DNA of 64,000 bases from the NCBI GenBank assembly GCA_934167875.1, contig CAKPMC010000006.1:16646-80645 (forward strand), read 5' to 3'. Positions within the stretch are counted from its first letter, which is position 1, and every line of letters starts with the position of its first letter. A program made the translations under genes and the position numbers. This stretch comes from an uncultured Bacilli bacterium (GTDB lineage: Bacteria > Bacillota_I > Bacilli_A > RF39 > UBA660). Under the pieces are notes generated by a model. That model worked only from the letters and a program-made list of their open reading frames with translations. It made no database searches and was not told the DNA's origin. This document shows, piece after piece, positions 636 through 42,492 of the stretch.

Positions 636-1524
636 AATGAAACTATTTAAAAAAGGAAAAGATAGTGCTCTAAGTATCTTAGAAACAGTTAAAAAAAAGA
701 AATTAGTTAGAAGATATATATTATTGATATTATCATTATTTATATCAGCATGCTATTTTAATTTGCTACAATTACCTACTCAAATAGTAACTGGTGGAAG
801 TAGCGGTGTTTCAATTATTCTAAATTATTATTTCAATTGGGATCCATCTCAAGTTATATTTATTATATCAGCAATTTTACTTATAGCAGGTTTTATCTTT
901 CTAGGTTTTGAAAAAACATCCGGTGCCCTTGTAACCACAATTATTTATCCAATGTTTGTTAACCTAACTGCTAATATTTCTGACTATATAGTAGTAGATT
1001 TATCAGATAAAATATTAATATCTATTTTTATAGGCTTACTTGCTGGTATAACTACAGGTATGGTATATAAAGCCGGTTTTAGTAACGGTGGCTTTTCAAT
1101 AATTAGTGAAATAATATCAGAACGAAAAAAAATTCCCATTTCCAATATCAGTTTTATAATTAATTTTATAATTGTTATACTTGGTGGAGTCAGCTTTGGT
1201 TGGACTATGGTAATGTATGCTGCTATTATTTTATATATTAATAGTGTAATATTAGATCGGGTTCTAATCGGTGTATCCAAAAATAAGGCACTATATATCA
1301 TAACTTCTGAGGAAGAAAAAATGAAAGATTATATTATGAATAGTTTAAAACATGGAATTACTATTTTTGATGTTAAGGGTGGCTTTTTAGAAAAGAAAAG
1401 AAAAGTATTAATGACAGTAATACCTAATCATGATTATTTTAAATTAAAAGAAGGAATAAAAGAAATAGATAAAGAAGCATTCTTTATTGTAACTGATTCT
1501 TATCAAGTATATGGAGGAGAGTAA
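604..1524 (+). CDS. YitT-family integral membrane protein (DUF161 + C-terminal DUF2179)
   Basis: Multiple TM segments, GGxxGGxS-like motifs, conserved C-terminal soluble domain ending ...FFIVTDSYQVYGGE. Confidence 0.6.
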   Translation: MMLMKYLEENKMKLFKKGKDSALSILETVKKKKLVRRYILLILSLFISACYFNLLQLPTQIVTGGSSGVSIILNYYFNWDPSQVIFIISAILLIAGFIFLGFEKTSGALVTTIIYPMFVNLTANISDYIVVDLSDKILISIFIGLLAGITTGMVYKAGFSNGGFSIISEIISERKKIPISNISFIINFIIVILGGVSFGWTMVMYAAIILYINSVILDRVLIGVSKNKALYIITSEEEKMKDYIMNSLKHGITIFDVKGGFLEKKRKVLMTVIPNHDYFKLKEGIKEIDKEAFFIVTDSYQVYGGE

Positions 1525-1619
1525 TCTCCTCTTTTTCCATTAATTAACATCATAAATTAATATAAAAATAGTAAAAATTGTCGAATTTATGATATAATGT
1601 AGAAAATAGATGAAGTTGG

Positions 1620-2330
1620 ATGGTGATAATATTGGAATTAATTAGAATCAAAGATGTGACCAAACAATACAAAAATGGAGTAACAGCTATTTTTGATTTG
1701 AATTTAAAGATAAAAAAAGGTGATTTTGTTTTTATTATAGGTGGAACCGGTTGTGGTAAATCAACCTTAATAAAAATGCTATATAGAGAAGAAAAACCTA
1801 CTCGTGGTGAAATTATAGTAGGTGGATTAAATGTAGCTAAACTAAGAAATAGTAAAGTTTATAAATTAAGAAGAAAATTAGGAATTGTTTTCCAAGACTA
1901 TAGACTTTTACCTAAGTCTACAGTATATGAAAATGTTGCTTTTGCCTTAGAAGTAATAGGAACAAAGAAAGATGAAATTAATAAAAAGGTATTAAGAGCA
2001 TTAGAACTTGTTGGGCTTAAAGGAAAATTAAGAAATTATCCAGATCAGTTATCAGGTGGTGAACAACAAAGAGTAGCTATAGCTCGTGCTATTGTAAATG
2101 AACCAAAACTATTACTTTGTGATGAACCTACTGGAAACCTAGATCCAGAAAAGAGTATGGAAATAATGAAAGTACTTGAGGATATCAATGCTACTTTAGG
2201 TACTACCATCATAATGGCAACTCATGATAAAGATATAGTAAATAAAATGAAAAAAAGAGTTGTTACATTAAAAGATGGAAGACTAGTAAGTGATGTAGAG
2301 AAAGGAAAGTATAATAATGAAGCCATTTAG
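1620..2330 (+). CDS. ftsE: cell division ATP-binding protein FtsE
   Basis: Walker A GGTGCGKST, signature LSGGEQQRVAIARA, Walker B LLLCDEPTGNLD, H-loop ATHD. Followed by ftsX. Confidence 0.85.
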   Translation: MVIILELIRIKDVTKQYKNGVTAIFDLNLKIKKGDFVFIIGGTGCGKSTLIKMLYREEKPTRGEIIVGGLNVAKLRNSKVYKLRRKLGIVFQDYRLLPKSTVYENVAFALEVIGTKKDEINKKVLRALELVGLKGKLRNYPDQLSGGEQQRVAIARAIVNEPKLLLCDEPTGNLDPEKSMEIMKVLEDINATLGTTIIMATHDKDIVNKMKKRVVTLKDGRLVSDVEKGKYNNEAI

Positions 2331-3216
2331 AATGTTTGGTAGAAGTATAAGAGATGCCTTCAAAAGTGTATTTAGAAATTTTTCTTTATCATTAGCCTCT
2401 ATTTCCTGTATTACAATTACTCTAATAGTAGTAGCTATTGCTTTATTGGCATCATTAAATGTAAATAATTTTACTAAAGAAATAAAAGAAGACATTACGA
2501 TAGTTGTTTTCGTAAATAGAGATGTTGAAGAAGAATCGTTAAATAGGATCAAAGCAAAATTAAATCAAATAGATAATATATCATCTATTGAGTATAAATC
2601 TAAAGCTGAATTAAGAAAAGAAATGCAAGCTTCATCAACAATGCTAGATGCAACAATGAAGAATTGGACTGAAGAAGAAAATCCATTAAAAGATACATTT
2701 CAAGTTAAAGTATCAGATATTGAAAAGATAAAGGAAACCGCATCAACAATAGAAAAGTTAGATGGAATAGATTCAGTAAATTACGGAGAAACAATGGTTA
2801 ATAGATTTTTATCAGCTTTTAGAATGATTCAAAAAGGAACTATAGTAGCTGTAATTATGTTAATAATAGTAACCGTTTTTCTAATTGTTAATACTATCAA
2901 ATTAACTATCTTTTCTAGAAAAAGAGAAATTTCAATTATGAGACTTGTAGGTGCAGGGAACTTTTCAATTAAAATGCCATTCGTTATTGAAGGAATGGTA
3001 CTAGGTATGATTGGTTCTATTATTCCTATTTTAATTGTTATATATGGCTATTTTGCCTTATATAAACACTTTGATGGTCAGTTATTCTCACCATTAATTA
3101 AATTAATATCTCCAGAACCATTTATATACATTGTATCTTTAGTTATATTAGTAATAGGTATAGTAGTAGGTATGATAGGAAGTTATAAAGCAGTTAGGAA
3201 GTACTTAAAAGTATGA
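2317..3216 (+). CDS. ftsX: cell division permease-like protein FtsX
   Basis: N-terminal TM helix, large extracellular loop, three C-terminal TM helices. Overlaps the ftsE stop. Confidence 0.8.
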   Translation: MKPFRMFGRSIRDAFKSVFRNFSLSLASISCITITLIVVAIALLASLNVNNFTKEIKEDITIVVFVNRDVEEESLNRIKAKLNQIDNISSIEYKSKAELRKEMQASSTMLDATMKNWTEEENPLKDTFQVKVSDIEKIKETASTIEKLDGIDSVNYGETMVNRFLSAFRMIQKGTIVAVIMLIIVTVFLIVNTIKLTIFSRKREISIMRLVGAGNFSIKMPFVIEGMVLGMIGSIIPILIVIYGYFALYKHFDGQLFSPLIKLISPEPFIYIVSLVILVIGIVVGMIGSYKAVRKYLKV

Positions 3217-4418
3217 TGAAAAAATTGTTTTCTAAGTTTCTACTACTATTAATAATTATTTCTATCATACTCCCTTCAACTGTTAATGCCGCCGATTTAA
3301 CTTATGGTCAAGTATTAGATGATTTGACCAATGCTAAAAAAGAATTAAATAAGAATAATCAATTAATTTCTGATAAAAATAATCAAATAGTTCAAAATAA
3401 CAGTACTATTAAAAATTTAAAATCAGAAGTAGAAAAAATGGGTGCTGAAGCAGTTGAACTTCAACAACAAATAGCAGATGCCAACACTGAAATAGATCAA
3501 AAAAAAGAACAAACTAAAAATTTAATTGTTTACTTACAAATGAGTCAAGGAAGTAATGTTTATTTAGATTATGTACTTGGTGGTGATTCTATAACTGATC
3601 TTGTTTATCGTTTATCTGTAGTAGAACAAATAACAGAATATAATGATAATATGGTTAAAGAATTAGAGGATTTAATAAGTAATAATGAAAAAAGAAAAGT
3701 TGAGTTAGCTAATAAACAAAAAGAATATGAAAACAAAATGACAACTTTAAATAATGAGGTTAATAAACTAACTAATTCAATAGCTAAGTTAGGTGACTTA
3801 TCACCAAGCTTGGAACAACAAGTAAAAGAAAAAGAAAAGTTAGTTAACTATTATAAATCTCAAGGATGTAAAAATCGTAGTGATGTAATAGGTAGAGATT
3901 GTGCTGTAACTAGTTCTAATGCTACTTTTTCAAGACCTATTAAAACAGGTTATGTGACTAGTTTTATTGGTTATAGATGGGGTAGTTTTCATAGAGGAAC
4001 TGATATAGGAAGCTCACTTGGAAGAAATACGCCATTATATTCGATTGGTAATGGTACTATTACTAGTATATGGAATGATGCGTATGGTGCAAAATGTATA
4101 AATGTTCAATATAGAACCTTAGATGGTAAATACTATACAGCTATTTATGCCCACCTAAGTAGATATGCATCAAATATATATGAAGGTATGCAAGTAAATT
4201 CTAATACTATACTTGGTTATATGGGTAATACAGGATATGCTTTTGGAGTACATCTTCACCTAGAAGTATGGCCATGTCGACTATATGGTGATAGTAATTG
4301 TAGCTCATGGAGTAAATATGTATCATTTGCTGAACGTAAATTTAGAGAAGGTTTTAAGGGAGCTGAAAGTGTAATATCATTCCCTAATAGAACATACCAA
4401 ACTTGGTATAATAAATAA
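3213..4418 (+). CDS. secreted coiled-coil M23 (LytM) peptidoglycan endopeptidase, PcsB/EnvC-like FtsEX partner
   Basis: Signal peptide, long coiled-coil region, C-terminal M23 motifs HRGTDIG ... HLHLEV. ATG overlaps the ftsX TGA stop. Confidence 0.75.
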   Translation: MMKKLFSKFLLLLIIISIILPSTVNAADLTYGQVLDDLTNAKKELNKNNQLISDKNNQIVQNNSTIKNLKSEVEKMGAEAVELQQQIADANTEIDQKKEQTKNLIVYLQMSQGSNVYLDYVLGGDSITDLVYRLSVVEQITEYNDNMVKELEDLISNNEKRKVELANKQKEYENKMTTLNNEVNKLTNSIAKLGDLSPSLEQQVKEKEKLVNYYKSQGCKNRSDVIGRDCAVTSSNATFSRPIKTGYVTSFIGYRWGSFHRGTDIGSSLGRNTPLYSIGNGTITSIWNDAYGAKCINVQYRTLDGKYYTAIYAHLSRYASNIYEGMQVNSNTILGYMGNTGYAFGVHLHLEVWPCRLYGDSNCSSWSKYVSFAERKFREGFKGAESVISFPNRTYQTWYNK

Positions 4419-4423
4419 TTAAT

Positions 4424-4463
4424 TTATGAGAGAAAAATTTTAAAATATTTTTCTCTTTTCTAT
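4424..4463 (+). terminator. rho-independent terminator after the M23 peptidase gene
   Basis: AGAGAAAAAT...ATTTTTCTCT stem followed by TTTTC. Confidence 0.4.
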
Positions 4464-4517
4464 TGTGGTTAAAAAGAAATAATATTATAATAAATTAAAT
4501 CAGGGAGTAGTATTATT

Positions 4518-5714
4518 ATGGTTGAAAAATTAGAACAAATTTATTTAATGGATAAAAACTTTAAATTTGTCCAAAGAACTAAAGACAAATTTATCTATAA
4601 GTATGAAGATAAAGAATTAGAACAATTAAATATTCTAGAACTTTTATTTTCTGAAGAAGAACAAAGAATTAAAAAAATAGATATCTATACTTTTTCAGGA
4701 TTAGAACCAATAGAAACTATGCATATTATAAGGGGTACAGACAATATCACTGAGGTTGATTATTATCCTAATGGATATGAGAATCTAACTATAGATAAAA
4801 TAAGCGAGCCTTATAGTATTAGTGTTTATCTTCAATTTAGTGAATTAGATGGTAATAATTACCAAGAATACAAAGAAATAGAATTGGTAAAAAAGGGTCA
4901 TAAAAAACACAAAGTATTATCTCAAATTCCATTAGAAGAAAATTACTATATTACTAAAGATAGTAGAATTCATTATATTTCTTCTAATAGTATAAGCAAA
5001 CTAAAAAGATTAACAGAGTTTTTAGTACCATCAATAAAAGAGATAGAAAAAAGATTATTTAATCCAGAAAGTATTGAATCATTAGAGAATGAAGATGATA
5101 ATGATCAAGCTATATTAGAACCTATTGATGGAACATATCCTGAACAAATGTATATATATGATCGTAATTATAATTTATTAGGAAAAAAATCTGGTGCTAT
5201 AGTATATCAAAATACTGAAGATGAAATTAAAGAGTTAGAAATTTATTTTACTGACGATAAGAGCAAATTAAAAGAAGTAAGATTAATTGATTATAGTGAT
5301 TCATATTTAGAAGGAATCAAAGTAAAATCTAAACGTAGAATAATTAGATTTTTGGTTACTAAAGATAATAAAATAAATGTAACATTATGTAATCGTAGAA
5401 AAGAACCAATGATAATAAATAGTCACACTATAGATAGAAATAATATTGCTGCTAGAGCCATAATAAATCAAAGTAATGAAATAGAAAAATTAGAAGTAAA
5501 AATCCAAAATCAATTAGGAACTTTCAATTTAACTAAATCACCTACTAAAAATATGGAATTTATTGATAAAAATAATGTTAGTTATCTAATTTCCTCAAAT
5601 TCTTTTGAACAGTTTAGAGTGTTTATAAGATATGTACCATTTATTCTAGGAGCATTAGAAAACAAATTAATCCCAGTTGACGAAGAAAAAAGTCCTATAT
5701 TAATTAAAAAGTAA
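4518..5714 (+). CDS. hypothetical protein (398 aa), first gene of the accessory segment
   Basis: Long ORF with RBS GGGAG. No motif recognised. Confidence 0.35.
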   Translation: MVEKLEQIYLMDKNFKFVQRTKDKFIYKYEDKELEQLNILELLFSEEEQRIKKIDIYTFSGLEPIETMHIIRGTDNITEVDYYPNGYENLTIDKISEPYSISVYLQFSELDGNNYQEYKEIELVKKGHKKHKVLSQIPLEENYYITKDSRIHYISSNSISKLKRLTEFLVPSIKEIEKRLFNPESIESLENEDDNDQAILEPIDGTYPEQMYIYDRNYNLLGKKSGAIVYQNTEDEIKELEIYFTDDKSKLKEVRLIDYSDSYLEGIKVKSKRRIIRFLVTKDNKINVTLCNRRKEPMIINSHTIDRNNIAARAIINQSNEIEKLEVKIQNQLGTFNLTKSPTKNMEFIDKNNVSYLISSNSFEQFRVFIRYVPFILGALENKLIPVDEEKSPILIKK

Positions 5715-5922
5715 AAGCTATCATCTTACAGCTTTTACTTTTTACTATTACATAATTTTTATATCTACATTCAATTAATAATCAACTCAATAATGTTGTT
5801 TAATTATTTTTAGAAATATGATATCATAAGCTTAATACAGAAAGATGATCCGAGATTAAAGATTCCATGTGAAGAAGTAGTAGATTTTGAAAATAAAGAA
5901 TTTTATCAAAATTTAATTAATC

Positions 5923-5977
5923 AAATTGTGGCAGCGAGCGTAAATCAATATGCATTTGCTGCAGCAGCCCACAATTT
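5923..5977. repeat. imperfect inverted repeat AAATTGTGGCAGC...GCTGCAGCAGCCCACAATTT
   Basis: 9-bp perfect outer arms AAATTGTGG/CCACAATTT plus inner CAGC/GCTG pairing. The arms resemble the AAATTTGTGG cassette core found at 7439-11239. Confidence 0.5.
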
Positions 5978-6087
5978 GGTATAAATAAAAGATTTATTTT
6001 AATGATAAGTGCAGTAGAAAGAAAAGTAAAAAATATAAATTAAAACAAATTTCATTAAAACCACTTGTTAAAAAGATAAAACAAAAA

Positions 6088-6513
6088 ATGTATCTTCCAG
6101 AGATGACAGTAGATGATTTCTTTACTACACAAGAAGAAAGAGATTTAAAAAGTAAAGAACACGTTGAAATGGTTGATATTAATGATATATCAGATTTTCC
6201 TAATCATCCTTTTAAAGTTATAGTAAATGAAGATATGTTAAATATGAGTAAGAGTATTGAAAAATATGGGGTGTTAGTACCGGCTTTAGTTAGACCAAAA
6301 GAAAATGGTAAATATGAAATGATTTCAGGTCATAGAAGAAAGAAAGCATTAGAAATTTTAGGAATACAAGAAATAGAAAAGATTACTGATAAATCTAGAG
6401 AAGAATTAATATTAACTAAAGAATCTGATAAAACTTACTGGTTTAATGGAAATTTAACTTATAATATTACTTTTAGGCTGAATATTTGCAATGACCATTA
6501 TTGGAGATATTAA
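6088..6513 (+). CDS. ParB/Srx-like N-terminal nuclease-domain protein, probably truncated
   Basis: VPALVRPKENGKYEMISGHRRKKALEILG matches the ParB N-terminal domain GxRR box. The C-terminal 30 aa is low-complexity with no HTH domain. Confidence 0.45.
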   Translation: MYLPEMTVDDFFTTQEERDLKSKEHVEMVDINDISDFPNHPFKVIVNEDMLNMSKSIEKYGVLVPALVRPKENGKYEMISGHRRKKALEILGIQEIEKITDKSREELILTKESDKTYWFNGNLTYNITFRLNICNDHYWRY

Positions 6514-6552
6514 ATTACTTAAGTGATTCTTTACTTATAAAAACCGATATAT

Positions 6553-7140
6553 TTAATAATTACTTTTTAATCTTTTTTGAATAATTTGGCTTTTTCGTTT
6601 CGTTTCATTTGTTAAATCTTCTAATGTGAATCCAAGCAATTGTGAAAGATATAGTATTTCTACTAATAATTTTTTTACAGTTTCTTTTTCAAGCTTTTGG
6701 ATTAAATCATTTCCTAATTTATAAAGTGTCAGAAATGTTTCTATAATATCTTTGTTACTTGTTGCAGAAAAATTTTCACTTAAAGATACATTTGTAATGT
6801 TACAAAAATATAATATCATAAATAAACAATCAATATATTCTTCTAATATATGATTTTTTTCACCAGTTTGATTTATTGACCAAAATTTAAAACATCTTGT
6901 TTCGTTAGCTAGTTCCCCAAATTCTACCAATAATTCAAGTTTATATTTTTTTATAATTTCAGGAGATTTGATATCAAATTGTAATGAAAATAAATCATCT
7001 AAATATTTTGTTTCTTTATATATTTCTTCTATGTTTAGCATAAATGTCACTTCTTTCTTAAAATCTATAGATTGATTATGAGTATTGTTAATTAATCGGA
7101 TTATATGATGTATTTTATCATTAAAATTAGTATTTAGCAA
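6553..7140 (-). CDS. all-alpha NTP-pyrophosphatase, dimeric dUTPase-like (tentative)
   Basis: Pattern ...LELLVEFGELANE..CFKFW....EEYIDCLFMILYF resembles dimeric dUTPase/MazG-like motifs, which are typical of phage and plasmid cargo. Confidence 0.3.
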   Translation of the reverse strand: MLNTNFNDKIHHIIRLINNTHNQSIDFKKEVTFMLNIEEIYKETKYLDDLFSLQFDIKSPEIIKKYKLELLVEFGELANETRCFKFWSINQTGEKNHILEEYIDCLFMILYFCNITNVSLSENFSATSNKDIIETFLTLYKLGNDLIQKLEKETVKKLLVEILYLSQLLGFTLEDLTNETKRKSQIIQKRLKSNY

Positions 7141-7430
7141 CTAACTGATGTTGTAACATACATCTAATGGAGATTTTGCTATGTTTCAAGATAATACTAA
7201 CTTAAACTTGTATAAATTATTTTATGATGTTGCTAAATAGGAAAGTATTTTAAATGTTGTTCAAAAAAATAATTGATATTACGGACACGGATTTAGAAAT
7301 TGAACATTATATCAATTAAATACCATAATAATAGAAAAGGGAGTTAAGATGACTTCCTTGTTTTATTGTAAAATAAGTGTTAAAATAAGTTACTAGAAAA
7401 CATTTAGTTTTACTTAGTTTTATTTAGTGT

Positions 7431-7463
7431 TATTTAGTAAATTTGTGGCCGGCATGTGTGTCC
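7431..7463 (+). repeat. cassette-boundary core, R-type copy 1 (TATTTAGTAAATTTGTGGCC...)
   Basis: Direct repeat shared with 7940, 9201, 9694 and 11228. Confidence 0.6.
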
Positions 7464-7571
7464 TATGCGTGTTCACAAAAAAAAGACCTATCAGTTAAGT
7501 GCTAGGCCACGAATTTTTGCTGATTGGACACGAATTTATTGGTTGATATGAGTCGTAATAAGGAGGGCATT

Positions 7572-7843
7572 ATGTTTAAATTAGAATCAAAATATACACC
7601 TAGTGGAGATCAACCACAGGCAATTAAGGAATTAGTAGAAGGAATTAAAGAAGGAAAAAGAGGCCAAGTTTTACTAGGGGCAACGGGGACAGGAAAAACT
7701 TTTACGATTGCTAATGTAATTAAAGAAGTTAATAAACAACCCTAGTACTTGCCCATAATAAAACACTTGCTGGACAACTTTATTCAGAATTAAAAGAATT
7801 GTTTCCAAATAATCACGTATGTTACTTTGTTTCTTATTATAGA
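7572..7843 (+). pseudogene. uvrB: uvrB 5' fragment A (promoter-proximal ~90 codons, frameshifted and truncated)
   Basis: [55 protein letters not shown] is near-identical to the N-terminus of intact UvrB at 11361. A 1-nt deletion near 7741 gives an in-frame stop at 7745, and homology continues in another frame to ...TTCTTATTAT at 7840. Confidence 0.8.
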
Positions 7844-7877
7844 AAAATCATAAAACCCCTTTTATTTCAATAATTTT

Positions 7878-7977
7878 AGTTTTATTTAATCCCTCGAAAA
7901 TACCATAAAAAGACTAAATAAAACTGGATAATGAAATGTAAATTTGTGGTCGAAATTCGTATTTATCCGTGTCTACT
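7878..7977 (+). repeat. L-type boundary: 13-bp-stem hairpin (AGTTTTATTTAAT...ACTAAATAAAACT) plus core AAATTTGTGGTCGAAATTCGTAT
   Basis: Near-identical 75-nt segment at 9655-9730. Confidence 0.6.
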
Positions 7978-8056
7978 AAAAAATTGAAAATAACGATAAT
8001 ATGTGATATATTATTAATCAATAAAAAGGGACTTTTTTAACATTGATGATTAAGGA

Positions 8057-9202
8057 ATGATTATAATGATTAAATATTATAAAGAACTAGAAAATAGATT
8101 GAATTATTATTTACCATTAGTAGATATTCAAGATAAAGGGAAAAAAGTATTATTTGATTATAAGACACCATTTTCATTTGTAGAAAAATATGAAGATTTA
8201 TTTAAAAATAGTGAATTTCTAATTACTATTTTTAAAGGGTTTAATATTGATGAATGGTTTCGAAATAATATATATATTGATTATGATAATGCCTGTTCTA
8301 TTTCTAGTGAATTTGAAAGTATAGAAGAAGAAATTTATTGCATATTAGAAGAATATGGGAAAATAAATTTTTCTTCTAGAGCAATAGAAAATTATTTATA
8401 TCTAATTAAAAGATTATCCATTTTATATATAGATTTATTTCCAAATAATAAACAATATTATACTTCACTTAATAATACAATAGTTGCAGCAATAGAAGAA
8501 TTAAAAAAATACAATACTATTCACTATATTCCAGATAAAGTAGATAATCTATATCAACCAGATGCATGGTATATAACACCTAATGGTTATTTATATAATG
8601 CCGGAAAATATGGACATAACGGTAGGGATTTAACGTTCAATTATAATAAAATGAAATATTTTATAAATAATAATGAAAATATATTAGACAATCATAAAAT
8701 TTCAAACGGATATTTAAATCTGTCTAAAAAAATAAAAGAAAATGGTTATATATCTGCAGGACAATTTAAGGTGTTTTTAAATTATATAAGTCAACCAGCC
8801 TATTTAGAGTCAATTAATGGAATACCAGTAACGAGAGAAAACCATATAATCCAATTAATTTTAGGTATAATTAATGCTCAAGCATGCTTTTATAGATTTT
8901 TTGAAGATTTATTTATATATACTGAAAAACCAGAAAATGAAATACATAAAATAATAAATTGGACTAATGATGATATAGGAGATGTATTAGTTAGGTGCTG
9001 TGGTTTTCATAAAATTGAATCAATGCTGGAAAAAACTATTACAACTAGTTGTATAAATTATGAAAATGAGTTGGAGGAATATATAAATAATGGGTGGAAC
9101 ATAGTATTTATACCACCATTTATTATTGATAAAGATAACCATTGTCTAAAAGAATATCCAGAAGATTTTTTAGTTATAAAAAGATTGTTGAAAACTATCT
9201 AG
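8057..9202 (+). CDS. hypothetical protein (381 aa), cargo of cassette 1
   Basis: Own TTGAAA-17-TATATT promoter at 7985-8013. No recognisable domain. Confidence 0.45.
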   Translation: MIIMIKYYKELENRLNYYLPLVDIQDKGKKVLFDYKTPFSFVEKYEDLFKNSEFLITIFKGFNIDEWFRNNIYIDYDNACSISSEFESIEEEIYCILEEYGKINFSSRAIENYLYLIKRLSILYIDLFPNNKQYYTSLNNTIVAAIEELKKYNTIHYIPDKVDNLYQPDAWYITPNGYLYNAGKYGHNGRDLTFNYNKMKYFINNNENILDNHKISNGYLNLSKKIKENGYISAGQFKVFLNYISQPAYLESINGIPVTRENHIIQLILGIINAQACFYRFFEDLFIYTEKPENEIHKIINWTNDDIGDVLVRCCGFHKIESMLEKTITTSCINYENELEEYINNGWNIVFIPPFIIDKDNHCLKEYPEDFLVIKRLLKTI

Positions 9203-9240
9203 TTTTATTTAGTAATTTGTGGCAAAATTCATCCTCATCC
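9201..9240 (+). repeat. cassette-boundary core, R-type copy 2 (AGTTTTATTTAGTAATTTGTGGCAAAATTCATCC)
   Basis: Direct repeat of the 7431 and 11213 elements. Confidence 0.6.
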
Positions 9241-9324
9241 AAAAAAAGACATATTTTTAATGTTATGAAAATAGATTAGGACACGAATTTGTTGGTTGAT
9301 ATGAGTCGTAATAAGGAGGGCATT

Positions 9325-9633
9325 ATGTTTAAATTAGAATCAAAATATACACCTAGTGGAGACCAACCACAAGCGATAGATGAGTTAGTTAAAGGAATAG
9401 AAAATGGCGAAAAACACCAAGTTTTACTAGGTGCAACTGGAACTGGAAAAACTTTTACGATTGCTAATGTAATTAAGGAAGTTAATAAACCAACCTTAGT
9501 ACTTGCCCATAATAAGACACTTGCGGGACAACTTTATTCAGAATTAAAAGAGTTGTTTCCAGAAAATCATGTATGCTATTTTGTTTCTTATTATAGGAAC
9601 CCATCGAAAACTATCTTATTCAGTACCTTTTAG
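9325..9633 (+). pseudogene. uvrB: uvrB 5' fragment B (in-frame 103-aa truncated copy retaining the Walker A GATGTGKT)
   Basis: [90 protein letters not shown], then diverges at the same TTCTTATTAT point (9594) as fragment A. Confidence 0.8.
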
Positions 9634-9730
9634 ATTTATTTAGTACCTCAAAGATACTATAAAAAGACTAAATAAAACTAGATAATAAAATGTAAATTTG
9701 TGGCCAAAATTCGTATTCATTCGTATTTAT
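9632..9730 (+). repeat. L-type boundary: hairpin (AGATTTATTTAGT...ACTAAATAAAACT) plus core AAATTTGTGGCCAAAATTCGTAT
   Basis: Parallels 7878-7977. Confidence 0.6.
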
Positions 9731-9822
9731 AAAAAATAATAAATTTAAACTAATATATTTTTATTATTTTTTTTGTAAGATTAAAGTTATAATAATAAAA
9801 ATATGATAAAATAATATGAGAG

Positions 9823-10533
9823 GTGATTTTAGTGAAATTAAATGATATTGAACAATTAACAAATGAAGAAATAGAAAAGATATATGAAAAATGTTTAGAA
9901 TATGCAAATAGAATTAAAAATCCAGATTTAAAGGAATGTTGTTTAGAAATTTATAATGATTATAAATCAAAACTTATAGCAAAACCAGCTACTGGAGATC
10001 CATGTCATCATTTTTTTAGAGGTGGTTTAATATATCATAGTTATTGCGTAACCAGAAATGCTATTATGATTGCAGAATTGTATGATTATATAAAATTAGA
10101 TATGGACTTAATAATATTTGGTTCATTATTACATGATATAGGAAAGACAAATGATTATAAAGATTTTGATTCTATAGAAAAAGGTGAAACAGGAATACTA
10201 AGTAGTGGTTCATATATGGTGGGTCATTCATACGAAGGAACTCATATTGTTGAAAATTATTTAGAAAAATATAATTTAGAAGATAAGTTTAAATATCAAG
10301 TTTTACATATGATAGGAAGTCATATGAAAGAATTTAGTGAATGGGGAGTATTAACATCACCAAAAATGTTAGAAGTAATAGTAATTAACTATGGTGATTC
10401 AATGGATGCTAGATTAGATAAAACAAGAAATGGTATTAATAATTCTGAAAAAGGTGAATTATATTATAATGAAAATCAAACGGCAAAATTTTATAAATCA
10501 ATAAATCCATATTACGAAAATGATAATTTATAA
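9823..10533 (+). CDS. HD-superfamily phosphohydrolase (YhaM-like HD domain), cargo of cassette 2
   Basis: HHFFRGGLIYHSYCV ... LLHDIGK ... HSYEGTH ... SHM ... D: an HD metal-binding motif series. Confidence 0.55.
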   Translation: MILVKLNDIEQLTNEEIEKIYEKCLEYANRIKNPDLKECCLEIYNDYKSKLIAKPATGDPCHHFFRGGLIYHSYCVTRNAIMIAELYDYIKLDMDLIIFGSLLHDIGKTNDYKDFDSIEKGETGILSSGSYMVGHSYEGTHIVENYLEKYNLEDKFKYQVLHMIGSHMKEFSEWGVLTSPKMLEVIVINYGDSMDARLDKTRNGINNSEKGELYYNENQTAKFYKSINPYYENDNL

Positions 10534-10663
10534 TTAAAATAAATATGCATCAAAAAGAAAAATTATAAAATATAAAAAAATATTCAAGAAGAAAATTTAA
10601 CTAATGATGGAATTAACGAGCTGATTATGGAACATTATATTTTCATAAATAAAGGAGTAAAAA

Positions 10664-11086
10664 ATGCAAAAAAAATTAAGTTTTATGACCTTGAATGATG
10701 TAAATATTGGAATAAGTAAAATTGAATTAAATAAATGGGATTTAATAATTATTGATAAATCTGGTAAATATTGTTTAAAAATCTGTGTGCAATATAATTG
10801 GAAAGATATCAATAACATAAAAACTGGTCAAAAACAAGAAATTGATTTTAACGAATATTGTTTAGCTGAAAACAATGAATCTGCTTTGATTTGGCCATCT
10901 AATTCCTATGTAGAAAAAATAAGTGATGATTCTATATGTTTTAATTTGGAATTTAAAAATTTATCTAATTCGACGCATTATATGAATAAAAGAGGTTGTT
11001 TTGATATTCAGTTAAATTCTCTTGAGGCTAAGGTTTTTATTGATTATAAAGATGCAATAGATGATTCTGTCATATATAATCTATAA
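10664..11086 (+). CDS. hypothetical protein (140 aa), cargo of cassette 2
   Basis: ORF with RBS AAAGGAG. No motif recognised. Confidence 0.35.
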   Translation: MQKKLSFMTLNDVNIGISKIELNKWDLIIIDKSGKYCLKICVQYNWKDINNIKTGQKQEIDFNEYCLAENNESALIWPSNSYVEKISDDSICFNLEFKNLSNSTHYMNKRGCFDIQLNSLEAKVFIDYKDAIDDSVIYNL

Positions 11087-11212
11087 AAAAAAGAAGTTGT
11101 TATGATAGAAAATAAAATAATGTATAATAATATATTGGAAGCATTAATTTTGCTTCCTTGTTTTATTATCAAAATAATGTTAAAATGAATTATTGAGAAA
11201 GACTTTAATTAC

Positions 11213-11360
11213 TTATTTTTATTTAATAAATTTGTGGCCGAAATTCGTATCCAAGAAAAAAAGATACATTTTTGATGCTGTAAAAATAGGTTAGGATACG
11301 AATTTTTAAAAATAGGATACGAATTATCTGGCTGGTAGTAGTCATAGTAAGGAGGACCAT
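11213..11360 (+). promoter_or_regulatory. uvrB upstream region: R-type core copy 3 plus dyad AAATTCGTATCC-N43-GGATACGAATTT(+GGATACGAATT), RBS AGGAGG
   Basis: Seen directly in the sequence. The same half-site GGACACGAATTT precedes both uvrB fragments (7526, 9279). Confidence 0.5.
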
Positions 11361-13319
11361 ATGTTCAAAATTCATTCAAAATATACACCGAGTGGTGATC
11401 AACCCCAGGCAATTAAGGAATTAGTAGAAGGTATTAAAGAAGGAAAACGCGACCAGGTTTTACTAGGAGCAACGGGAACAGGAAAAACTTTTACGATTGC
11501 TAATGTAATTAAAGAAGTTAATAAACCAACCCTAGTTTTAGCTCATAATAAAACACTTGCGGGACAACTTTATTCAGAATTAAAAGAATTGTTTCCTAAC
11601 AATCACGTATGCTATTTTGTATCCTATTATGATTATTACCAACCAGAAGCCTATGTTCCATCTACAGATACCTATATAGAAAAAGATTCATCTATTAATG
11701 ATGAAATTGATGAACTTCGTCACTATGCAACAAGCTCTCTTTTATCTTATGATGATGTCATTGTAGTAGCCAGTGTAAGTTGTATTTACGGTATTGGTGA
11801 AGTAGAAGAATATCGAAACAAAATGCTAAGCATAGGAGTAGGAGATAATGTAGAAAGAAACACTATCATGACGAAACTAGTAGAAATGATGTACGAAAGA
11901 AATGATTTTGATTTTAAGCGTGGTACCTTTAGAGTAAAGGGTGATGTTCTAGAAATCATACCAGCCTATGAAAACACAAAAGGGTATAGAATTGAGTTTT
12001 TTGGTGATGAAATAGATAGAATTAGTGAAATAGATTCTCTAACTGGAGCAGTTATTCAAAATAAAAAAACATTAACTATTTTTCCAGCCAGTCACTTTGT
12101 AACTAGTGATGAAAAACTAATAGAGGCAGTGAAAAGAATTAAACTAGAATTAGCTGATAGGATTCAATATTTTAAAGATAATAATAAACTACTAGCAGCA
12201 GAAAGAATAGAACAGCGTACAAACTATGATATAGAAATGTTAACTGAAACAGGATTCTGTCGTGGTATTGAAAACTATTCTCGTCATATGGCTTTACGTG
12301 GTGAAGGAGAAACCCCAACTACTTTAATGGATTTCTTTCCAAAAGATTTTTTATTAGTAATAGATGAATCCCATGTAACACTTCCTCAGGTAAGGGGAAT
12401 GTATAATGGTGATAGAGCTAGAAAAATGAATTTAGTAGAGTATGGCTTTAGACTACCAAGTGCACTAGATAATAGACCATTAAAATTTGAGGAATTTGAG
12501 AAAAAAATCAATCAAGTTATTTATGTATCAGCAACTCCAGGAGATTACGAATTAGAAAAGACTAGTAATCAGTTTATTGAACAAATTATTCGTCCAACTG
12601 GACTTCTTGATCCAACAATTGAAGTAAGACCAAGTAAAGGTCAAATTGATGATTTAATTGGTGAAATTAAAGCTAGAATTGCGAAAAACGAACGTACTTT
12701 AATAACCACTCTAACAATTAGAATGGCAGAAGAATTAGCGAATTACCTAAAAGATATTGATATTAAAGTGGCATATTTACATAGTGAAGTAAAAACATTA
12801 GAAAGAATGCGCATTATTAGAGATTTAAGATTAGGTAAATATGACTGTATTGTTGGAATCAATCTATTACGTGAAGGAATTGATATACCAGAAGTTAGTT
12901 TGATAGCAATTATGGATGCTGATAAAGAAGGATTCTTGCGTAGTGAAAGAAGTTTAATTCAAACAATTGGTAGATGTGCTAGAAATGCTAGTGGTCATTG
13001 TATTATGTATGCTGATAAAATAACAGACAGTATGGATAAGGCTATTAAAGAAACAATGCGTCGTCGTACAATTCAGGAAGAATATAATAAAGAACATGGT
13101 ATTACGCCACAGACAATCAAAAAAGAAATTAGAGATTTAATTAGTAATGTCGATGACAACAAAGAAAAACAAACATCTCCTAAGAAGAAAGATAAAAAAG
13201 AATTATTAAAAATGATAGATGAAATCGAAGAATCTATGAAACAAGCAGCAAAGGAATTAGATTTCGAACGTGCTATGCAGTTAAGAGATGCATTATTTGA
13301 ATTAAAGAGTGAATTATAA
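11361..13319 (+). CDS. uvrB: excinuclease ABC subunit B
   Basis: Full-length 652 aa with helicase motifs, beta-hairpin region [10 protein letters not shown], and C-terminal UvrB-UvrC interaction domain ...[10 protein letters not shown]... Confidence 0.95.
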
Positions 13320-14158
13320 TGAAAAAGTTTAAGAAAATATATATAGAAATCACGAATATCTGTAATCTTAATTGCTCTTTTTGTAGTAAAGATAATCGTA
13401 TAAAAGAAAGTATTTCGCTAACGAATATGGAAGAACTATTAAAGAAAATTAATGATTATACGGATTATGTTTATCTTCATGTAAAAGGTGAACCATTACT
13501 ACACCCAAAGTTAAAAGAAATCTTAGATTTATGTGAAAAATATCATAAAAAAGTAAATATTACGACGAATGCTACACTTCTAAAATCCAAAGAAACAATC
13601 CTATCTCATACAGCTATTCGCCAAATTAATTTATCAGTACATAGTGAAAATCAAGAAAAAAATTATTTAGAAGAAATCTTTGAAGTAACTGATAAACTGA
13701 AAGAAAAGAATATTGTTTATCGTTTTTGGACTATGAATGATAATAATCTAAATAAAAAATCAACAGAATTAGTGGAAAAAATAATAAATCATTACAAGTT
13801 GTCCCCAGAAATTGTGGAAAAAATAAAAACAGACAACAATATTAAAATAAATAGTAACACTTATGTGAATAAAGCTAATCAATTTGTTTGGCCTAATATT
13901 AATAATGATTATTATAACGATAAAGGATATTGTTACGCTTTAAAAGATCAATTAGCTATTTTAGTAGACGGTACTGTTGTACCATGCTGTTTAGATAGTG
14001 ATGGCATCATTAATTTAGGAAACATTTATAGTAATACTATAGAAGTTATTATAAATAGTAGTCGCTATCAAAAAATGAGAAGTGGTTTCTGCAATCGTAA
14101 AGTAACTGAAGAACTATGTAAACACTGTAGTTACAAAGAAAGATTTGACATTAATTAA
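13319..14158 (+). CDS. radical SAM / SPASM-domain enzyme (279 aa)
   Basis: CNLNCSFC (CxxxCxxC) near the N-terminus plus GEPLL. The C-terminal Cys-rich region PCCLDSDG...CKHC is SPASM/twitch-like. ATG overlaps the uvrB TAA. Confidence 0.65.
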   Translation: MKKFKKIYIEITNICNLNCSFCSKDNRIKESISLTNMEELLKKINDYTDYVYLHVKGEPLLHPKLKEILDLCEKYHKKVNITTNATLLKSKETILSHTAIRQINLSVHSENQEKNYLEEIFEVTDKLKEKNIVYRFWTMNDNNLNKKSTELVEKIINHYKLSPEIVEKIKTDNNIKINSNTYVNKANQFVWPNINNDYYNDKGYCYALKDQLAILVDGTVVPCCLDSDGIINLGNIYSNTIEVIINSSRYQKMRSGFCNRKVTEELCKHCSYKERFDIN

Positions 14159-14188
14159 ATTATAAATATAATAGAAAAGGTGATTTGA

Positions 14189-14656
14189 ATGAAAATAGTA
14201 CAAAATGAAGTATGTTATGTAGAAAGAGAAGATATTTATAATTTAAGAATGTTTCCTCAGTATGTTGTTTCTGAAATTAACTTTAGATCTAATTCTAAAT
14301 ATATAAAATTTGAAAATCCTAGATCAATAAATTATTTCTCAGAAAGTGATTTTATAATCGACTATACTGAAATATGCAATTTATCATTAGCAGAAATAAC
14401 TCTAAAGATAGAAAAATTAAAACAAAGTTTAAGTAATTTAGCTGGTGAATGGTTATATGCTTCTGAAAATTTAAGAGAAAGTTTGGATAGGAATAGAGAT
14501 TATAATTATAAAATTAAGTCAATTAAATACATACTAATGTCTATGGAAAAATATATGAATAATAAAGAAACTTATGATGAAGAAATAGAACAGTTATCAT
14601 TTACTAAAAGTAAATTAAAAGAACCTATAAAAGCTTTAGAATATCATTATCAGTAA
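14189..14656 (+). CDS. hypothetical protein (155 aa)
   Basis: ORF with RBS AAAGGTG. Confidence 0.35.
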   Translation: MKIVQNEVCYVEREDIYNLRMFPQYVVSEINFRSNSKYIKFENPRSINYFSESDFIIDYTEICNLSLAEITLKIEKLKQSLSNLAGEWLYASENLRESLDRNRDYNYKIKSIKYILMSMEKYMNNKETYDEEIEQLSFTKSKLKEPIKALEYHYQ

Positions 14657-14726
14657 GATATTGACATGATTGCTTATATATAGTAAAATAATCCTCCTGA
14701 TTAAAATTAGGAGAAAAGGTGATTAT

Positions 14727-15023
14727 ATGGGTATATATAATAAAGTATATATAGGGCATGTTGAAACAGTTAATCTTGATGTAAGTGTACACCAATCACC
14801 AATAGAGTCTAAAGTAATTGCACTCCAATTGAATAATATTGATAAAAACAGAAATATTATAACTTATAAACCATTAAGACAATATAGTGAATATTATAAG
14901 TTAGTTAGTGTAGAGGAAAAACCATTAACAGGTACTTTTGGTAATATTGTTGGTGATAAGGATATTAATTTTGCCTTAAAGAAAACTGGAAAACAGGAAG
15001 TAAAAAAACTGAGAAAGTGTTAA
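14727..15023 (+). CDS. hypothetical protein (~98 aa; track ORF 14670 probably starts at the internal Met after RBS AGGAGAAAAGGTG)
   Basis: ORF only. Confidence 0.3.
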   Translation: MGIYNKVYIGHVETVNLDVSVHQSPIESKVIALQLNNIDKNRNIITYKPLRQYSEYYKLVSVEEKPLTGTFGNIVGDKDINFALKKTGKQEVKKLRKC

Positions 15024-15107
15024 ATGCACTTTCTTTTTCTATAAACATTTAACTGATTGCTATAAAGAACTTATTTTGTTAAAATTGTTGTAAAGGAGAG
15101 GAATGAA

Positions 15108-15497
15108 ATGAAAAATAGACAATATAAATTATTACTATTTTTTGGATTGTTAGTAATGTACTATATCTTTGCTTTAAACAATATAACCATTCCTTGTTTA
15201 TTTAATAAGATAACTAATTTATATTGTCCAGGATGTGGTGTTACCAGAATGTTATTATCCATTTCAAAATTAAATTTTTACCAAGCCTTTAGATATAATC
15301 AATTAGTATTTATATTTTTGCCCTTTATTTTATTACTATTAATAGACTTTTTATTAAAATGGCTGAAGAATCAAAATAATTACATATATTTAAGAATAAA
15401 TAATAAAGTATGGGTAGTTTTGTTAATAATCGTTTTAGTATTTGGAATACTAAGAAATATTCCCCTCTTTGATTATCTAAAACCAATTATTATATAG
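15108..15497 (+). CDS. small membrane protein, DUF2752-like (CPGCG motif)
   Basis: LYCPGCGVTRM plus 3-4 TM segments. Confidence 0.35.
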   Translation: MKNRQYKLLLFFGLLVMYYIFALNNITIPCLFNKITNLYCPGCGVTRMLLSISKLNFYQAFRYNQLVFIFLPFILLLLIDFLLKWLKNQNNYIYLRINNKVWVVLLIIVLVFGILRNIPLFDYLKPIII

Positions 15498-42330: not shown

Positions 42331-42492
42331 TTGATTTCCTTATATATATTGTGTTATACTTATCCATGTGTGGCTGCTTAGATGTGTGAGGTTGCTGATA
42401 CGCCAGGTTAAGTTGTTAAAATTTTACTTAGCGAATTCAGGTTTTTACACGGAGCAAGTCTATACTAGATATAGGCGAAGGGAGGATTCGAA
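42331..42492 (+). promoter_or_regulatory. S10-operon promoter (TTGATT-18-TGtTATACT) and ~130-nt GC-enriched leader
   Basis: The leader 42361-42492 is conspicuously GC-rich and structured relative to its flanks. This is the position of the L4-responsive S10 leader in other bacteria. Confidence 0.4.

Follow-up and report, generated by a model that had tools for sequence, protein, structure and literature searches.

Small genes ahead of uvrB in an uncultured Bacilli bacterium of the gut are probably passengers of two integrase-less cassettes

What are the small genes that precede uvrB in an uncultured gut Bacilli bacterium, and do they belong together? Three of them, encoding p381, an HD-domain protein (HD) and p140, lie in the window, the whole 64,000-nt stretch of DNA analyzed here. 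The original prediction regarded them as cargo of an insertion hotspot beside DNA-repair genes, HD and p140 being partners, and took such cargo to be typical of defense, toxin-immunity or stress modules. Small genes near repair genes are not automatically defense modules, and the hotspot here is an integration site inside uvrB itself, where at least part of the cargo resembles former neighbors of the gene.

Results

The three claimed open reading frames were confirmed on the + strand, at 8057-9202, 9823-10533 and 10664-11086. Clustering at 90% identity gave 267 clusters for p381, 231 for HD and 112 for p140; all three are conserved protein families and therefore genes, not chance ORFs. The p381 homologues all begin at the second ATG (MIKYY...), and the start most likely lies at 8066, which would give a protein of 378 aa (8066-9202). 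The GTG at 9823 falls within a GAGGTG ribosome-binding site, and HD homologues and gene calls begin at the GTG at 9832; by this comparison the HD gene is read as 9832-10533 (233 aa), corrected from the 9823 start. The promoter proposed for p381 (TTGAAA-17-TATATT) is present at 7984-8012 with a TG extension. In a promoter scan it shares the region's top score (10/12) and is the sole top scorer with that extension. Promoter-like matches show no excess over shuffled sequence (39 observed vs 37.7), so the weight of this promoter rests on its conservation, the element being kept in the same position in the p381 cassettes of four other loci. A separate candidate, AAATTTGTGG as a common operator of uvrA and uvrB, was rejected, the uvrA copy being merely an extended -10 promoter (TGGTATAAT).

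The 5' region of uvrB occurs three times and a 129-nt left-end repeat twice, and these copies bracket the three genes. This layout corresponds to two cassettes stacked head to tail within the uvrB 5' end, all on the + strand. Each follows the same plan: a conserved left end (LE), the cargo, a right end (RE), then a copy of uvrB codons 1-97. Cassette 1 consists of LE1, p381, RE1 and uvrB', and cassette 2 of LE2, HD, p140, RE2 and the uvrB 5' end. The cassettes measure 1.7-2.0 kb and hold one or two genes each, with an LE of ~130 nt and an RE of 90-250 nt plus 290 nt of uvrB.

The array opens with what is left of an older element. The last ~17 codons of a tyrosine integrase (...ITDTDLEIEHYIN*) remain at 7268..7319; this remnant aligns with the 3' end of the integrase ORFs of L004 and L106 and occupies the same place ahead of RE. 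RE0 of this oldest element (7337..7571) comprises a terminator (7337-7359), a TAGTTTTATTTAGT / AAATTTGTGGCC block, GGAYACGAATT repeats and the uvrB promoter/RBS. It is followed by uvrB' fragment 1 (7572..7845; repeat D1), which covers codons 1 to ~90, is disrupted by stop/frameshift and matches UvrB residues 1-90 at 94-100% in tblastn. LE1 (7846..8012; repeat D2), the left end of cassette 1 with the p381 promoter inside it, is 81% identical to LE2 and conserved across the aligned loci. Behind p381 (8066..9202) lie RE1 (9200..9324), a short form without terminator that holds one GGACACGAATT site and the uvrB promoter/RBS, and uvrB' fragment 2 (9325..9633), an intact 102-codon ORF with UvrB residues 1-90+ plus a short tail. 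Fragment 2 is the 5' end displaced on arrival of cassette 2. The latter begins with its conserved left end, LE2 (9595..9790), and continues with HD (9832..10533), which has its own -10 (TATGATAAAAT) and RBS, and with p140 (10664..11086) behind a conserved ~95-nt leader (10570..10663). RE2 (11137..11360), with a terminator (11137-11157), a AAATTTGTGGCC block, three GGATACGAATT sites and the uvrB promoter/RBS, leads into the functional uvrB (11361..13319), whose first ~291 nt are supplied by cassette 2.

LE and RE are conserved around differing cargos and between species. Eight of the ten window matches to GGAYACGAATT lie inside 7283-11325, with 1.4 expected window-wide; LE, RE and these repeats would have att roles. 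In related contigs, full-length tyrosine integrases occupy the same RE position: integrase genes end directly before RE in L004, L023, L106, L112 and L061, and the full-length L073 integrase (440 aa) has Phage_int_SAM_3 and Phage_integrase domains. The window shares LE/RE blocks with the integrase-bearing elements of L106, L112 and L073. L106 as the exact precursor of the window was rejected, its uvrB 5' copy being only 87% identical to fragment 1. No integrase match was found inside cassette 1 or 2, which contain only p381 and only HD plus p140, respectively, and none was seen in about 20 p381 cassettes. Similarly, no locus examined held an intact autonomous element with p381, HD or p140, and no integrase relatives were found in viral contigs. 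A literature search on integration into uvrB gave nothing relevant. Other cargos at the same uvrB site are an MFS transporter, SoFic, p381 plus p304, and a HAD hydrolase; SoFic and MazF are carried by sister cassettes and elements.

Strain comparisons bear out the description of the genes as small, self-contained mobile cargo at an insertion site. Locus L002, from the same species, has cassette 1 and lacks cassette 2; it matches the window identically to ~9500, inside uvrB', and diverges beyond. Cassette content varies between strains of the species, in which nt 1-291 of uvrB are 81-89% identical vs 95-99% for nt 292-900. Between species, identity is 80-96% for p381 but only 69-78% for the UvrB body (up to 96% vs 69%), which indicates that p381 is horizontally spread. 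The presence/absence polymorphism and the swapping of the uvrB 5' segment point, indirectly, to predicted mobilization by a co-resident integrase. Taken together, the cassette variation, the divergent first 291 nt of uvrB and the ends shared with integrase elements fit remnants of the CIME (cis-mobilizable element) type, integrase-less and att-flanked, accreted at uvrB.

Checks against Pfam, PADLOC and, by structure, Foldseek found no family or fold for p381 or p140. These two belong to uncharacterized families, and HD is a YhaM-type nuclease core. For p381, no family match was obtained in Pfam, PADLOC, PHROG or NCBIfam, and profiles of 32 and 57 sequences matched none of the PDB sequences. 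A DUF3298 match in 1 of the 57 relatives (E = 0.003, below cut-off) was set aside as chance. Its AF2 model is confident (pLDDT 84), and Foldseek against PDB and BFVD returned nothing with E < 0.04 or a meaningful TM-score. Ten long relatives with additional N-terminal regions offered no Pfam domains and no informative fusion there, and tblastn against phages and plasmids gave no match. Several activities were weighed by eye from sequence motifs and discarded: ADP-ribosyltransferase (R-S-E; spacing wrong), HEPN Rx4H (R310-H315; not kept across the diverse alignment A5, and modeled in part as a beta strand), and PD-(D/E)xK, DDE or HKD (neither order nor secondary structure fits). The best-conserved polar residues are N178, H184, K316, T327 and Y339, and a ~120-aa C-terminal module recurs in many relatives with different N-terminal parts. 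These two features suggest an enzymatic or ligand-binding function for p381 more than a structural role.

The p381 family comprises about 250 clusters at 50% identity. In six or more species, and in many contigs from metagenomes, p381 sits in a cassette whose LE, promoter and RE are conserved; in L032 and L034 it is a pseudogene. Homologues of 74-78% identity lie away from uvrB in L024 and L026. A 64% homologue sits in a p381/def/p304/uvrB block without an element, with a native promoter free of RE motifs. More distant relatives in four species share a conserved rnr-like/smpB-like/NUDIX-like/p381-like/tmk-like context, the neighbors' identities being read from N-terminal sequence without HMM.

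The H...HD...D metal-binding motif of the HD superfamily is intact in HD, with H72, H104-D105, H167 and D192/D195 invariant in 22 homologues; the family invariants are H62, H63, H72, H104, D105, K108, H135, H162, H167, D192 and D195. The protein belongs to Pfam HD (PF01966; 42.4 bits vs a cut-off of 22, 9.7e-11). Its supposed YhaM likeness is also confirmed by a match to PDB YhaM 9h3f (E = 1.3e-13, chain residues 114-296). The NCBIfam YhaM model (NF010007), which stands for a Mn-dependent 3'-5' exoribonuclease/deoxyribonuclease with a hexameric ring, is matched at 2.5e-17 over model positions 103-295 only, scoring 62.9 vs a cut-off of 460, and the N-terminal OB-fold nucleic-acid-binding domain (YhaM residues ~20-90) is absent. 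In YhaM, the extended HD motif holds two metals through H163, H193, D194, H250, H251 and D274, and the helical linker and HD domain form a hexameric catalytic ring (PMC12107432). HD keeps five of these six ligands, the H251 equivalent being an invariant Met168. With YhaM / Cbf1 of Bacillus and Staphylococcus (PDB 9h3f, 9o7t; PMC12107432) it shares a homologous helical linker and HD domain, at about 28% identity (E = 1e-13 over the linker and HD region). However, YhaM has about 314 aa and binds substrate through its OB fold, whereas HD has 233 aa and is OB-less; and unlike the core gene yhaM, the HD gene is accessory and mobile. HD is predicted to act on single-stranded DNA or RNA as a phosphodiesterase or 3'-5' exonuclease that depends on divalent metal, using the catalytic ring core of YhaM and no OB domain for substrate binding.

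Across four HD contexts, DNA homology is confined to the -10, the RBS and the ORF, a pattern by which HD appears to move alone, as one gene plus its promoter. Close homologues (83-85% identity) occupy four unrelated loci away from uvrB. Immediate neighbors include PDC-S06 (4.8e-190) and RT_UG26 (1.4e-151), with PDC-S50 a few genes off, and HD is also found in a RhuM/KilA-N/SLFN island. About 11 of 75 neighboring ORFs match defense candidates, the PADLOC PDC families being candidates only; as a single island, in different versions, accounts for four of the nine HD loci, this enrichment is not independent. Searches of phages and plasmids by tblastn gave distant YhaM-like matches only. Because this one-gene unit often lies among defense-candidate genes, a role in nucleic-acid surveillance appears most likely. 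In another lineage, a parB-like/HD/uvrB order is a conserved chromosomal position in a common gut species, HD lying 60 bp 5' of uvrB, and there it could have a DNA-repair role instead.

The AF2 model of p140 is compact and all-beta (pLDDT 96). This orphan protein of 140 aa had no family match in Pfam, NCBIfam, PHROGs or PADLOC, no match in phages by tblastn, and no Foldseek hit in PDB with E < 0.04 or a meaningful TM-score. Its ~95-nt leader is near-identical in the window, L051 and L121 despite differing upstream sequence. Proposed as the partner of HD, p140 does not behave as one: their adjacency is not conserved, this species being the only one in which the two stand together. Without HD, p140 occurs in L007-11, L039, L051-55 and L121, adjoining uvrB in L051-55 and L121 and lying elsewhere in unrelated islands; HD occurs without p140 in five other contexts, standing alone in L012-15, L043-50 and L117-120. 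The def/p140/uvrB arrangement lacks a displaced uvrB' fragment, yet a full RE lies between p140 and uvrB, and it is not element-free. L051 likewise has a full RE 5' of uvrB without LE or uvrB' fragment, so some seemingly native contexts may be fixed old insertions. The p140 islands are rich in GNAT, ADP-ribosylglycohydrolase, Imm26 and SieB genes, and from this context, a binding or neutralizing (immunity-like) role is the best guess. The small genes beside p140 are not paralogues detectable by HMM, and the idea of p140 paralogue arrays was rejected.

Discussion

The best account of the locus is that p381, HD and p140 are probably passengers of two integrase-less, att-flanked, CIME-type remnants from a family of small tyrosine-integrase elements, and represent captured uvrB-flank genes or leftover genes. 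The elements would insert at about uvrB codon 97, directly after ...TCTTATTAT, and uvrB would be repaired by the element's own promoter and codons 1-97. Every newcomer would shift the previous uvrB 5' copy upstream, building the array. Lacking an integrase, the cassettes could be mobilized only with the help of a relative that bears one, in cis or in trans, or else be exchanged by homologous recombination across the conserved 5' part of uvrB. The three genes would not form one functional module; they would be lineage-specific accessory genes of a kind found directly 5' of uvrB in related species, p381 and p140 having separate single-gene functions. Most likely, imprecise excision in lambda-dgal style would have captured them together with the 5' flank of uvrB, or they would have been left over after deletion of the remainder of an element. 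Since no intact autonomous element carries any of the three, aberrant-excision capture is inseparable from decay after deletion.

The original prediction leaned toward defense or toxin-immunity modules. On an anti-phage or toxin-immunity reading, HD would be a nuclease effector that has p140 for a partner or antitoxin, while p381 would be a defense protein acting by itself. The place of the genes in mobile cassettes at an insertion hotspot would suit this, as would SoFic and MazF on sister cassettes and elements, the HD homologues directly beside PDC-S06 and RT_UG26 or in the RhuM/KilA-N/SLFN island, and the p140 homologues amid Imm26, ADP-ribosylglycohydrolase, GNAT and SieB genes. PADLOC-DB v2, however, gave no match to p381 or p140 at E <= 0.1, and only Cas3-HD-type matches to HD (4.8e-5 or weaker), which reflect generic HD similarity. 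Furthermore, HD and p140 are apart in every other context examined, and defense genes are scarce around p381 (about 3 specific matches among 87 ORFs). All three genes also occur without a displaced uvrB' fragment, p381 and HD there without element motifs. A conserved chromosomal context elsewhere, which the original prediction named, together with homology to ordinary metabolic enzymes, as evidence against it, is seen for HD (parB-like/HD/uvrB) and for p381 (rnr-like...tmk-like; p381/def/p304/uvrB), and this counts in part against that prediction. A defense function is therefore rather unlikely, being unsupported save for a weak guilt by association of HD.

Adjacency to uvrB could also mean that HD especially, and perhaps p381 and p140, are ancestral uvrB operon partners in the DNA-damage response, carried along by the elements; the task of HD would then be to trim 3' ends or to break down the excised oligonucleotides. 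HD does lie 60 bp 5' of uvrB in a widespread species, p381 and p140 stand directly 5' of uvrB in many, and no terminator separates p381 from the next uvrB copy. In B. subtilis, yhaM is under LexA regulation, but the yhaM mutant is not DNA-damage sensitive (PMC12107432). Moreover, close homologues of HD, and those of p381 at 74-78% identity, lie off uvrB at the loci described above, p140 is present in unrelated islands, and the insertion site itself explains the adjacency, which makes this partnership very unlikely. We give almost no credence to p381 as a function for cassette maintenance or mobility (a recombination directionality factor, replication initiator or novel recombinase). This would account for the p381 one-gene cassette being the most widespread, across the six or more species and many metagenomic contigs where it keeps its LE, promoter and RE, and it would suit an orphan protein with invariant polar residues. 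However, p381 homologues exist in ordinary chromosomal contexts without LE or RE, the autonomous elements of the family never encode p381, the protein resembles no recombinase, Rep or Xis family or fold, and in two loci the gene has decayed.

Passenger status in accreted remnants has a close precedent in CIMEs and the tandem accretion of integrative elements, both defined in PMC5704250, for example in the ICESt1/ICESt3-related islands of Streptococcus thermophilus. Like CIMEs, cassettes 1 and 2 have lost the integrase and kept both att-type ends, stand head to tail at one target gene beside integrase-bearing relatives, and differ in content between strains. Unlike CIMEs, the uvrB units target the 5' part of a protein gene (codon ~97) and carry a promoter and about 290 nt of replacement coding sequence; they are also only 1.7-2.0 kb long, and are known here from the sequence of uncultured, small-genome gut Bacilli. 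Defective specialized-transducing elements of the lambda dgal/bio type, which arise by aberrant excision, offer a second likeness, in that the cassettes carry genes natively flanking the attachment site in related hosts and have no integration genes of their own. We infer this likeness from comparative context; no phage is involved at uvrB, and no precursor/product pair was seen.

In integron cassettes and the recombinase-associated orphan-immunity (rAID) arrays of gut Bacteroidales, small units of one or two genes are lined up in one orientation beside a tyrosine recombinase, and the uvrB cassettes resemble them in this respect. An integron cassette is promoterless and bears a single attC imperfect-palindrome site, next to intI, attI and Pc. 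The uvrB cassettes have no attC-type hairpin, attI or Pc, and in contrast to both systems, each of them is driven by a promoter of its own, ends in long, asymmetric flanks and includes part of the target gene; the integrase of the element family is of the phage type with a SAM-like N-terminal domain. A bolder proposal is that the uvrB site is an integron-like capture platform of small-genome gut Bacilli, at which species would exchange integrase-less one-gene cassettes, each bringing a replacement 5' end for uvrB. In that proposal, which we consider quite unlikely, p381 and p140 would be founders of new protective functions (anti-phage or anti-toxin), and the OB-less YhaM ring a new stand-alone nuclease effector of defense islands.

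The cassettes considered here nonetheless bear on wider questions. In the human gut microbiome, p381 and p140 form orphan families of considerable size, with high-confidence models that have no fold match. The mobile OB-less YhaM core accompanies defense candidates and is thus a cheap target for biochemistry and phage challenge. Replacement of the uvrB 5' end, in turn, marks strain-level variation in uncultured Bacilli.

Structure of the uvrB array

Three same-direction ORFs (8057-9202, 9823-10533 and 10664-11086) are found in the window, whose G+C content is ~26%, between an ftsE/ftsX/M23-peptidase block on one side and uvrB, a radical-SAM gene and uvrA on the other. The uvrB 5' end is present in two further, truncated copies (7572-7845 and 9325-9633) interspersed with these ORFs, and the units are delimited by a 300-nt repeat present three times, including the start of intact uvrB, and by a 129-nt repeat present twice. 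Homologues and gene calls place the start of the first gene, p381, at 8066 (378 aa) and that of the second, HD, at a GTG at 9832 (233 aa); the third is p140. At 90% identity, 267 (p381), 231 (HD) and 112 (p140) clusters were recovered, which identifies all three as conserved families. The promoter TTGAAA-17-TATATT, with a TG extension (7984-8012), is kept in orthologous cassettes of other species. The original prediction of three cargo ORFs and of this promoter was thus borne out.

The best-supported interpretation is that p381, HD and p140 are passengers of two CIME-type remnants, left by a family of integrative elements that target uvrB. Cassette 1 comprises a left end (LE), p381, a right end (RE1) and a displaced 5' uvrB copy (uvrB'), and cassette 2 comprises a left end, HD, p140, RE2 and the uvrB 5' end. 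LE is conserved, bounds each cargo block on the left and starts at the exact break point of the displaced uvrB copy, between TCTTATTAT and AG at codon ~97. RE bounds each block on the right and is followed by the uvrB promoter, RBS and codons 1-97. An intrinsic terminator opens RE0 and RE2, and the AAATTTGTGGCC block is common to LE and RE. Several copies of GGAYACGAATT, candidate arm-type integrase binding sites, occur in both ends; 8 of the 10 window matches fall in 7283-11325, with 1.4 expected window-wide. We infer an att function for LE, RE and the repeats. Every LE and RE within 7283-11325 has the 11-mer, as does the integrase 3' end, and both orientations occur.

The uvrB' ORF of 102 aa or so is often intact, with promoter, RBS and Walker A motif (GATGTGKT), as at 9325-9633 and likewise in related loci L001, L005, L019, L079, L094 and L106; the first fragment (7572-7845) is disrupted.

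Evidence for movement

In L002, a contig from the same species, cassette 1 is present and cassette 2 missing. Its sequence agrees fully with the window as far as ~9500, inside the second uvrB' fragment, and diverges beyond; this point is a breakpoint of recombination in the 5' region of uvrB. Among three strains of the species, uvrB nucleotides 1-291 are 81-89% identical against 95-99% for nucleotides 292-900, as expected if incoming elements replace the 5' segment. Between species, p381 is 80-96% identical and the UvrB body 69-78% (96% versus 69% in L025).

Other cargos in the LE/RE frame are an MFS transporter (L019, L023), p381 with a 304-aa orphan, p304 (L019), a HAD hydrolase with a membrane protein (L094) and, in L005, a Fic/HTH protein that fits the SoFic model for defence. 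Judging by L005, cassettes of this family seem to carry defence genes from place to place. The L005 gene (8517-9494; Fic/HTH_24, PADLOC SoFic match 5e-39) is directly upstream of the displaced uvrB' and occupies an older cassette's position.

Window cassettes 1 and 2 contain no integrase and so match CIMEs accreted at an integration site in tandem, as defined in PMC5704250; the resemblance, seen by sequence comparison, lies in integrase loss and tandem stacking. Accreted integrase-less elements with cargo are a known phenomenon, to which this case adds new members: the targeting of the 5' end of uvrB with its coding start replaced, the lineage of the host, and two orphan protein families.

Integrase-bearing relatives and older insertions

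Related loci were gathered by a metagenome scan with the block common to LE and RE. The end of a tyrosine integrase gene abuts RE in L004, L023, L106, L112 and L061, and L073 carries a full-length integrase at RE (440 aa, Phage_int_SAM_3 and Phage_integrase domains). The L073 region (1-5802) is an element tandem at uvrB, in the order MazE-like, MazF (PemK), 63-aa Xis-like HTH, tyrosine integrases of 406 and 440 aa (both full-length), RE, uvrB', LE, 106-aa orphan and ParA.

L106 belongs to the window's species (UvrB body 98% identical) and reads uvrB', LE, ParA, ParB-like gene, 869-aa repeat protein, integrase, RE, uvrB. Its integrase is truncated as well, though the element is fuller than the window copy. 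Window positions 5714-7571 are a graveyard of older insertions that includes a decayed copy of this ParA/ParB/integrase element: a ParB_N fragment (6088-6513), an integrase 3' remnant of the last ~17 codons (7268-7319) and the RE0 that follows it all match L106 parts. Two other features there have no L106 counterpart: a dimeric-dUTPase ORF on the minus strand (6553-7140) and, at ~5830-5985, a peptide-deformylase (def) pseudogene.

The cargo proteins

For p381 there is no match in Pfam, NCBIfam, PHROGs or PADLOC, and none in phage and plasmid collections. Searched with a profile, 1.84 billion representatives yielded 251 clusters, among which the C-terminal ~120 residues form the most widely shared module, joined to varied N-termini. 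Ten long relatives contained no Pfam domain, and no weak match recurred consistently when 57 diverse members were scanned. AF2 models the protein with confidence (pLDDT 84, pTM 0.60); neither Foldseek against PDB and BFVD nor the sequence profile against PDB found a match. The best conserved residues in a diverse alignment are W168, L176, Y177, N178, H184, G267, K316, I325, T327, Y339 and G343.

Directly upstream of uvrB, p381 occurs in at least 10 species, about half with a displaced uvrB' and LE upstream. A 64% homologue lies in a p381/def/p304/uvrB block (L027, L029, L094) whose uvrB promoter lacks all RE motifs. Relatives of 74-78% identity are located away from uvrB (L024, L026), and those of ~32% identity share a conserved rnr/smpB/NUDIX/p381-like/tmk-looking context in four species, with neighbours named from N-terminal sequence, without HMMs. 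In L032 and L034 only a pseudogene of p381 is present. The p304 protein, whose gene separates uvrB from p381 or def in several species (L019 11187-12101; L027 6248-7162; L029 6507-7421; L094 10864-11778), is another uncharacterised uvrB-upstream gene product, with no match in Pfam or PADLOC.

The part of YhaM to which HD aligns (PDB 9h3f residues 114-296, E = 1.3e-13) builds the enzyme's hexameric catalytic ring. YhaM is a Mn-dependent, ssDNA-specific 3' exonuclease under LexA regulation, whose ring assembles independently of its OB domain (PMC12107432). HD entirely lacks this N-terminal domain. By the motif given in PMC12107432, family-invariant H72, H104-D105, H167 and D192/D195 match five of YhaM's six metal ligands; the equivalent of YhaM H251 is an invariant Met. 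HD is most likely a metal-dependent 3' exonuclease or phosphodiesterase.

HD homologues are found in six or more unrelated settings: the window cassette; a parB-like/HD/uvrB arrangement, HD lying 60 bp from uvrB, in a very common species; a DUF218/cadherin-like region; a variable island downstream of rplS (RhuM, KilA-N, SLFN/AlbA, serine recombinase); next to a 693-aa protein matching PADLOC PDC-S06 (4.8e-190); and divergent from an RT_UG26 reverse transcriptase (1.4e-151). In the last two, homologues 83-84% identical directly adjoin the PDC-S06 candidate or the defence-type reverse transcriptase (L117 4482-6560; L120 5494-6690). Across four compared contexts, DNA homology is limited to the -10 (TATGATAAAAT), RBS and ORF, and HD therefore relocates as a one-gene unit.

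For p140 there is likewise no match in Pfam, NCBIfam, PHROGs or PADLOC, and its excellent AF2 model (pLDDT 95.9, twelve strands) has no fold match in PDB. The expected partnership with HD did not hold. In L051-55, p140 is directly upstream of uvrB, and its leader there follows the HD promoter, the HD ORF being precisely missing; in L121-123 it occurs without HD under a different promoter; the two are therefore independent genes. Islands with p140 contain Imm26, LRR_5, ADP-ribosylglycohydrolase, GNAT, SieB and Bro-N genes, and in L039 it is 4 kb from a distant p381 relative. Three loci whose upstream sequence differs have a nearly identical ~95-nt leader before p140 (window 10570-10663; L051 6905-7000; L121 ~115-210), which may be a regulatory 5' UTR; it has no Rfam match at the gathering threshold.

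Origin and role of the cargo

In related species, p381, HD, p140 or close relatives are directly upstream of uvrB without a displaced uvrB'; element motifs are absent there too for p381 and HD, and def/p140 in L051 retains the full RE. An integrase was never seen together with any of the three inside one cassette. Because of this uvrB-upstream position without uvrB' and the missing integrase, we favour an origin in which uvrB-upstream flank would have been captured by imprecise excision, a process likened, from comparative context, to specialised-transducing derivatives. Simple decay of formerly autonomous elements is a possible alternative to flank capture.

That the cargo forms defence or toxin-immunity modules, as originally proposed, is not supported by catalogue searches or gene-pair conservation. 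Only guilt by association for HD still favours it: ~11 of 75 nearby ORFs match PADLOC models (E <= 1e-8), mostly PDC candidates, several loci being variants of one island, and the enrichment is suggestive. HD may have a role in surveillance; p381 and p140 are accessory proteins. Few defence genes surround p381. A DNA-repair link for HD is possible, but the insertion site itself better explains the uvrB adjacency. The results of most use are the revised anatomy, the dismissal of HD and p140 as a pair, and three proteins tractable for experiment.

Other features of the window

A 398-aa ORF (4518-5714) downstream of the M23 peptidase has no match in Pfam, PHROGs or NCBIfam, and a 37%-identical homologue is at the same position in L079. 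The uvrB-uvrA interval (13319-15497) contains a radical-SAM/SPASM gene (13319-14158), two small orphans and a DUF2752 membrane protein, and varies by species: uvrA directly follows uvrB in L114, and L051 has DHH/adh_short genes. No tRNA genes were found in the window; its sole Rfam match is an S10-Clostridia ribosomal-protein leader (RF03136, 36.5 bits) at 42371-42478.
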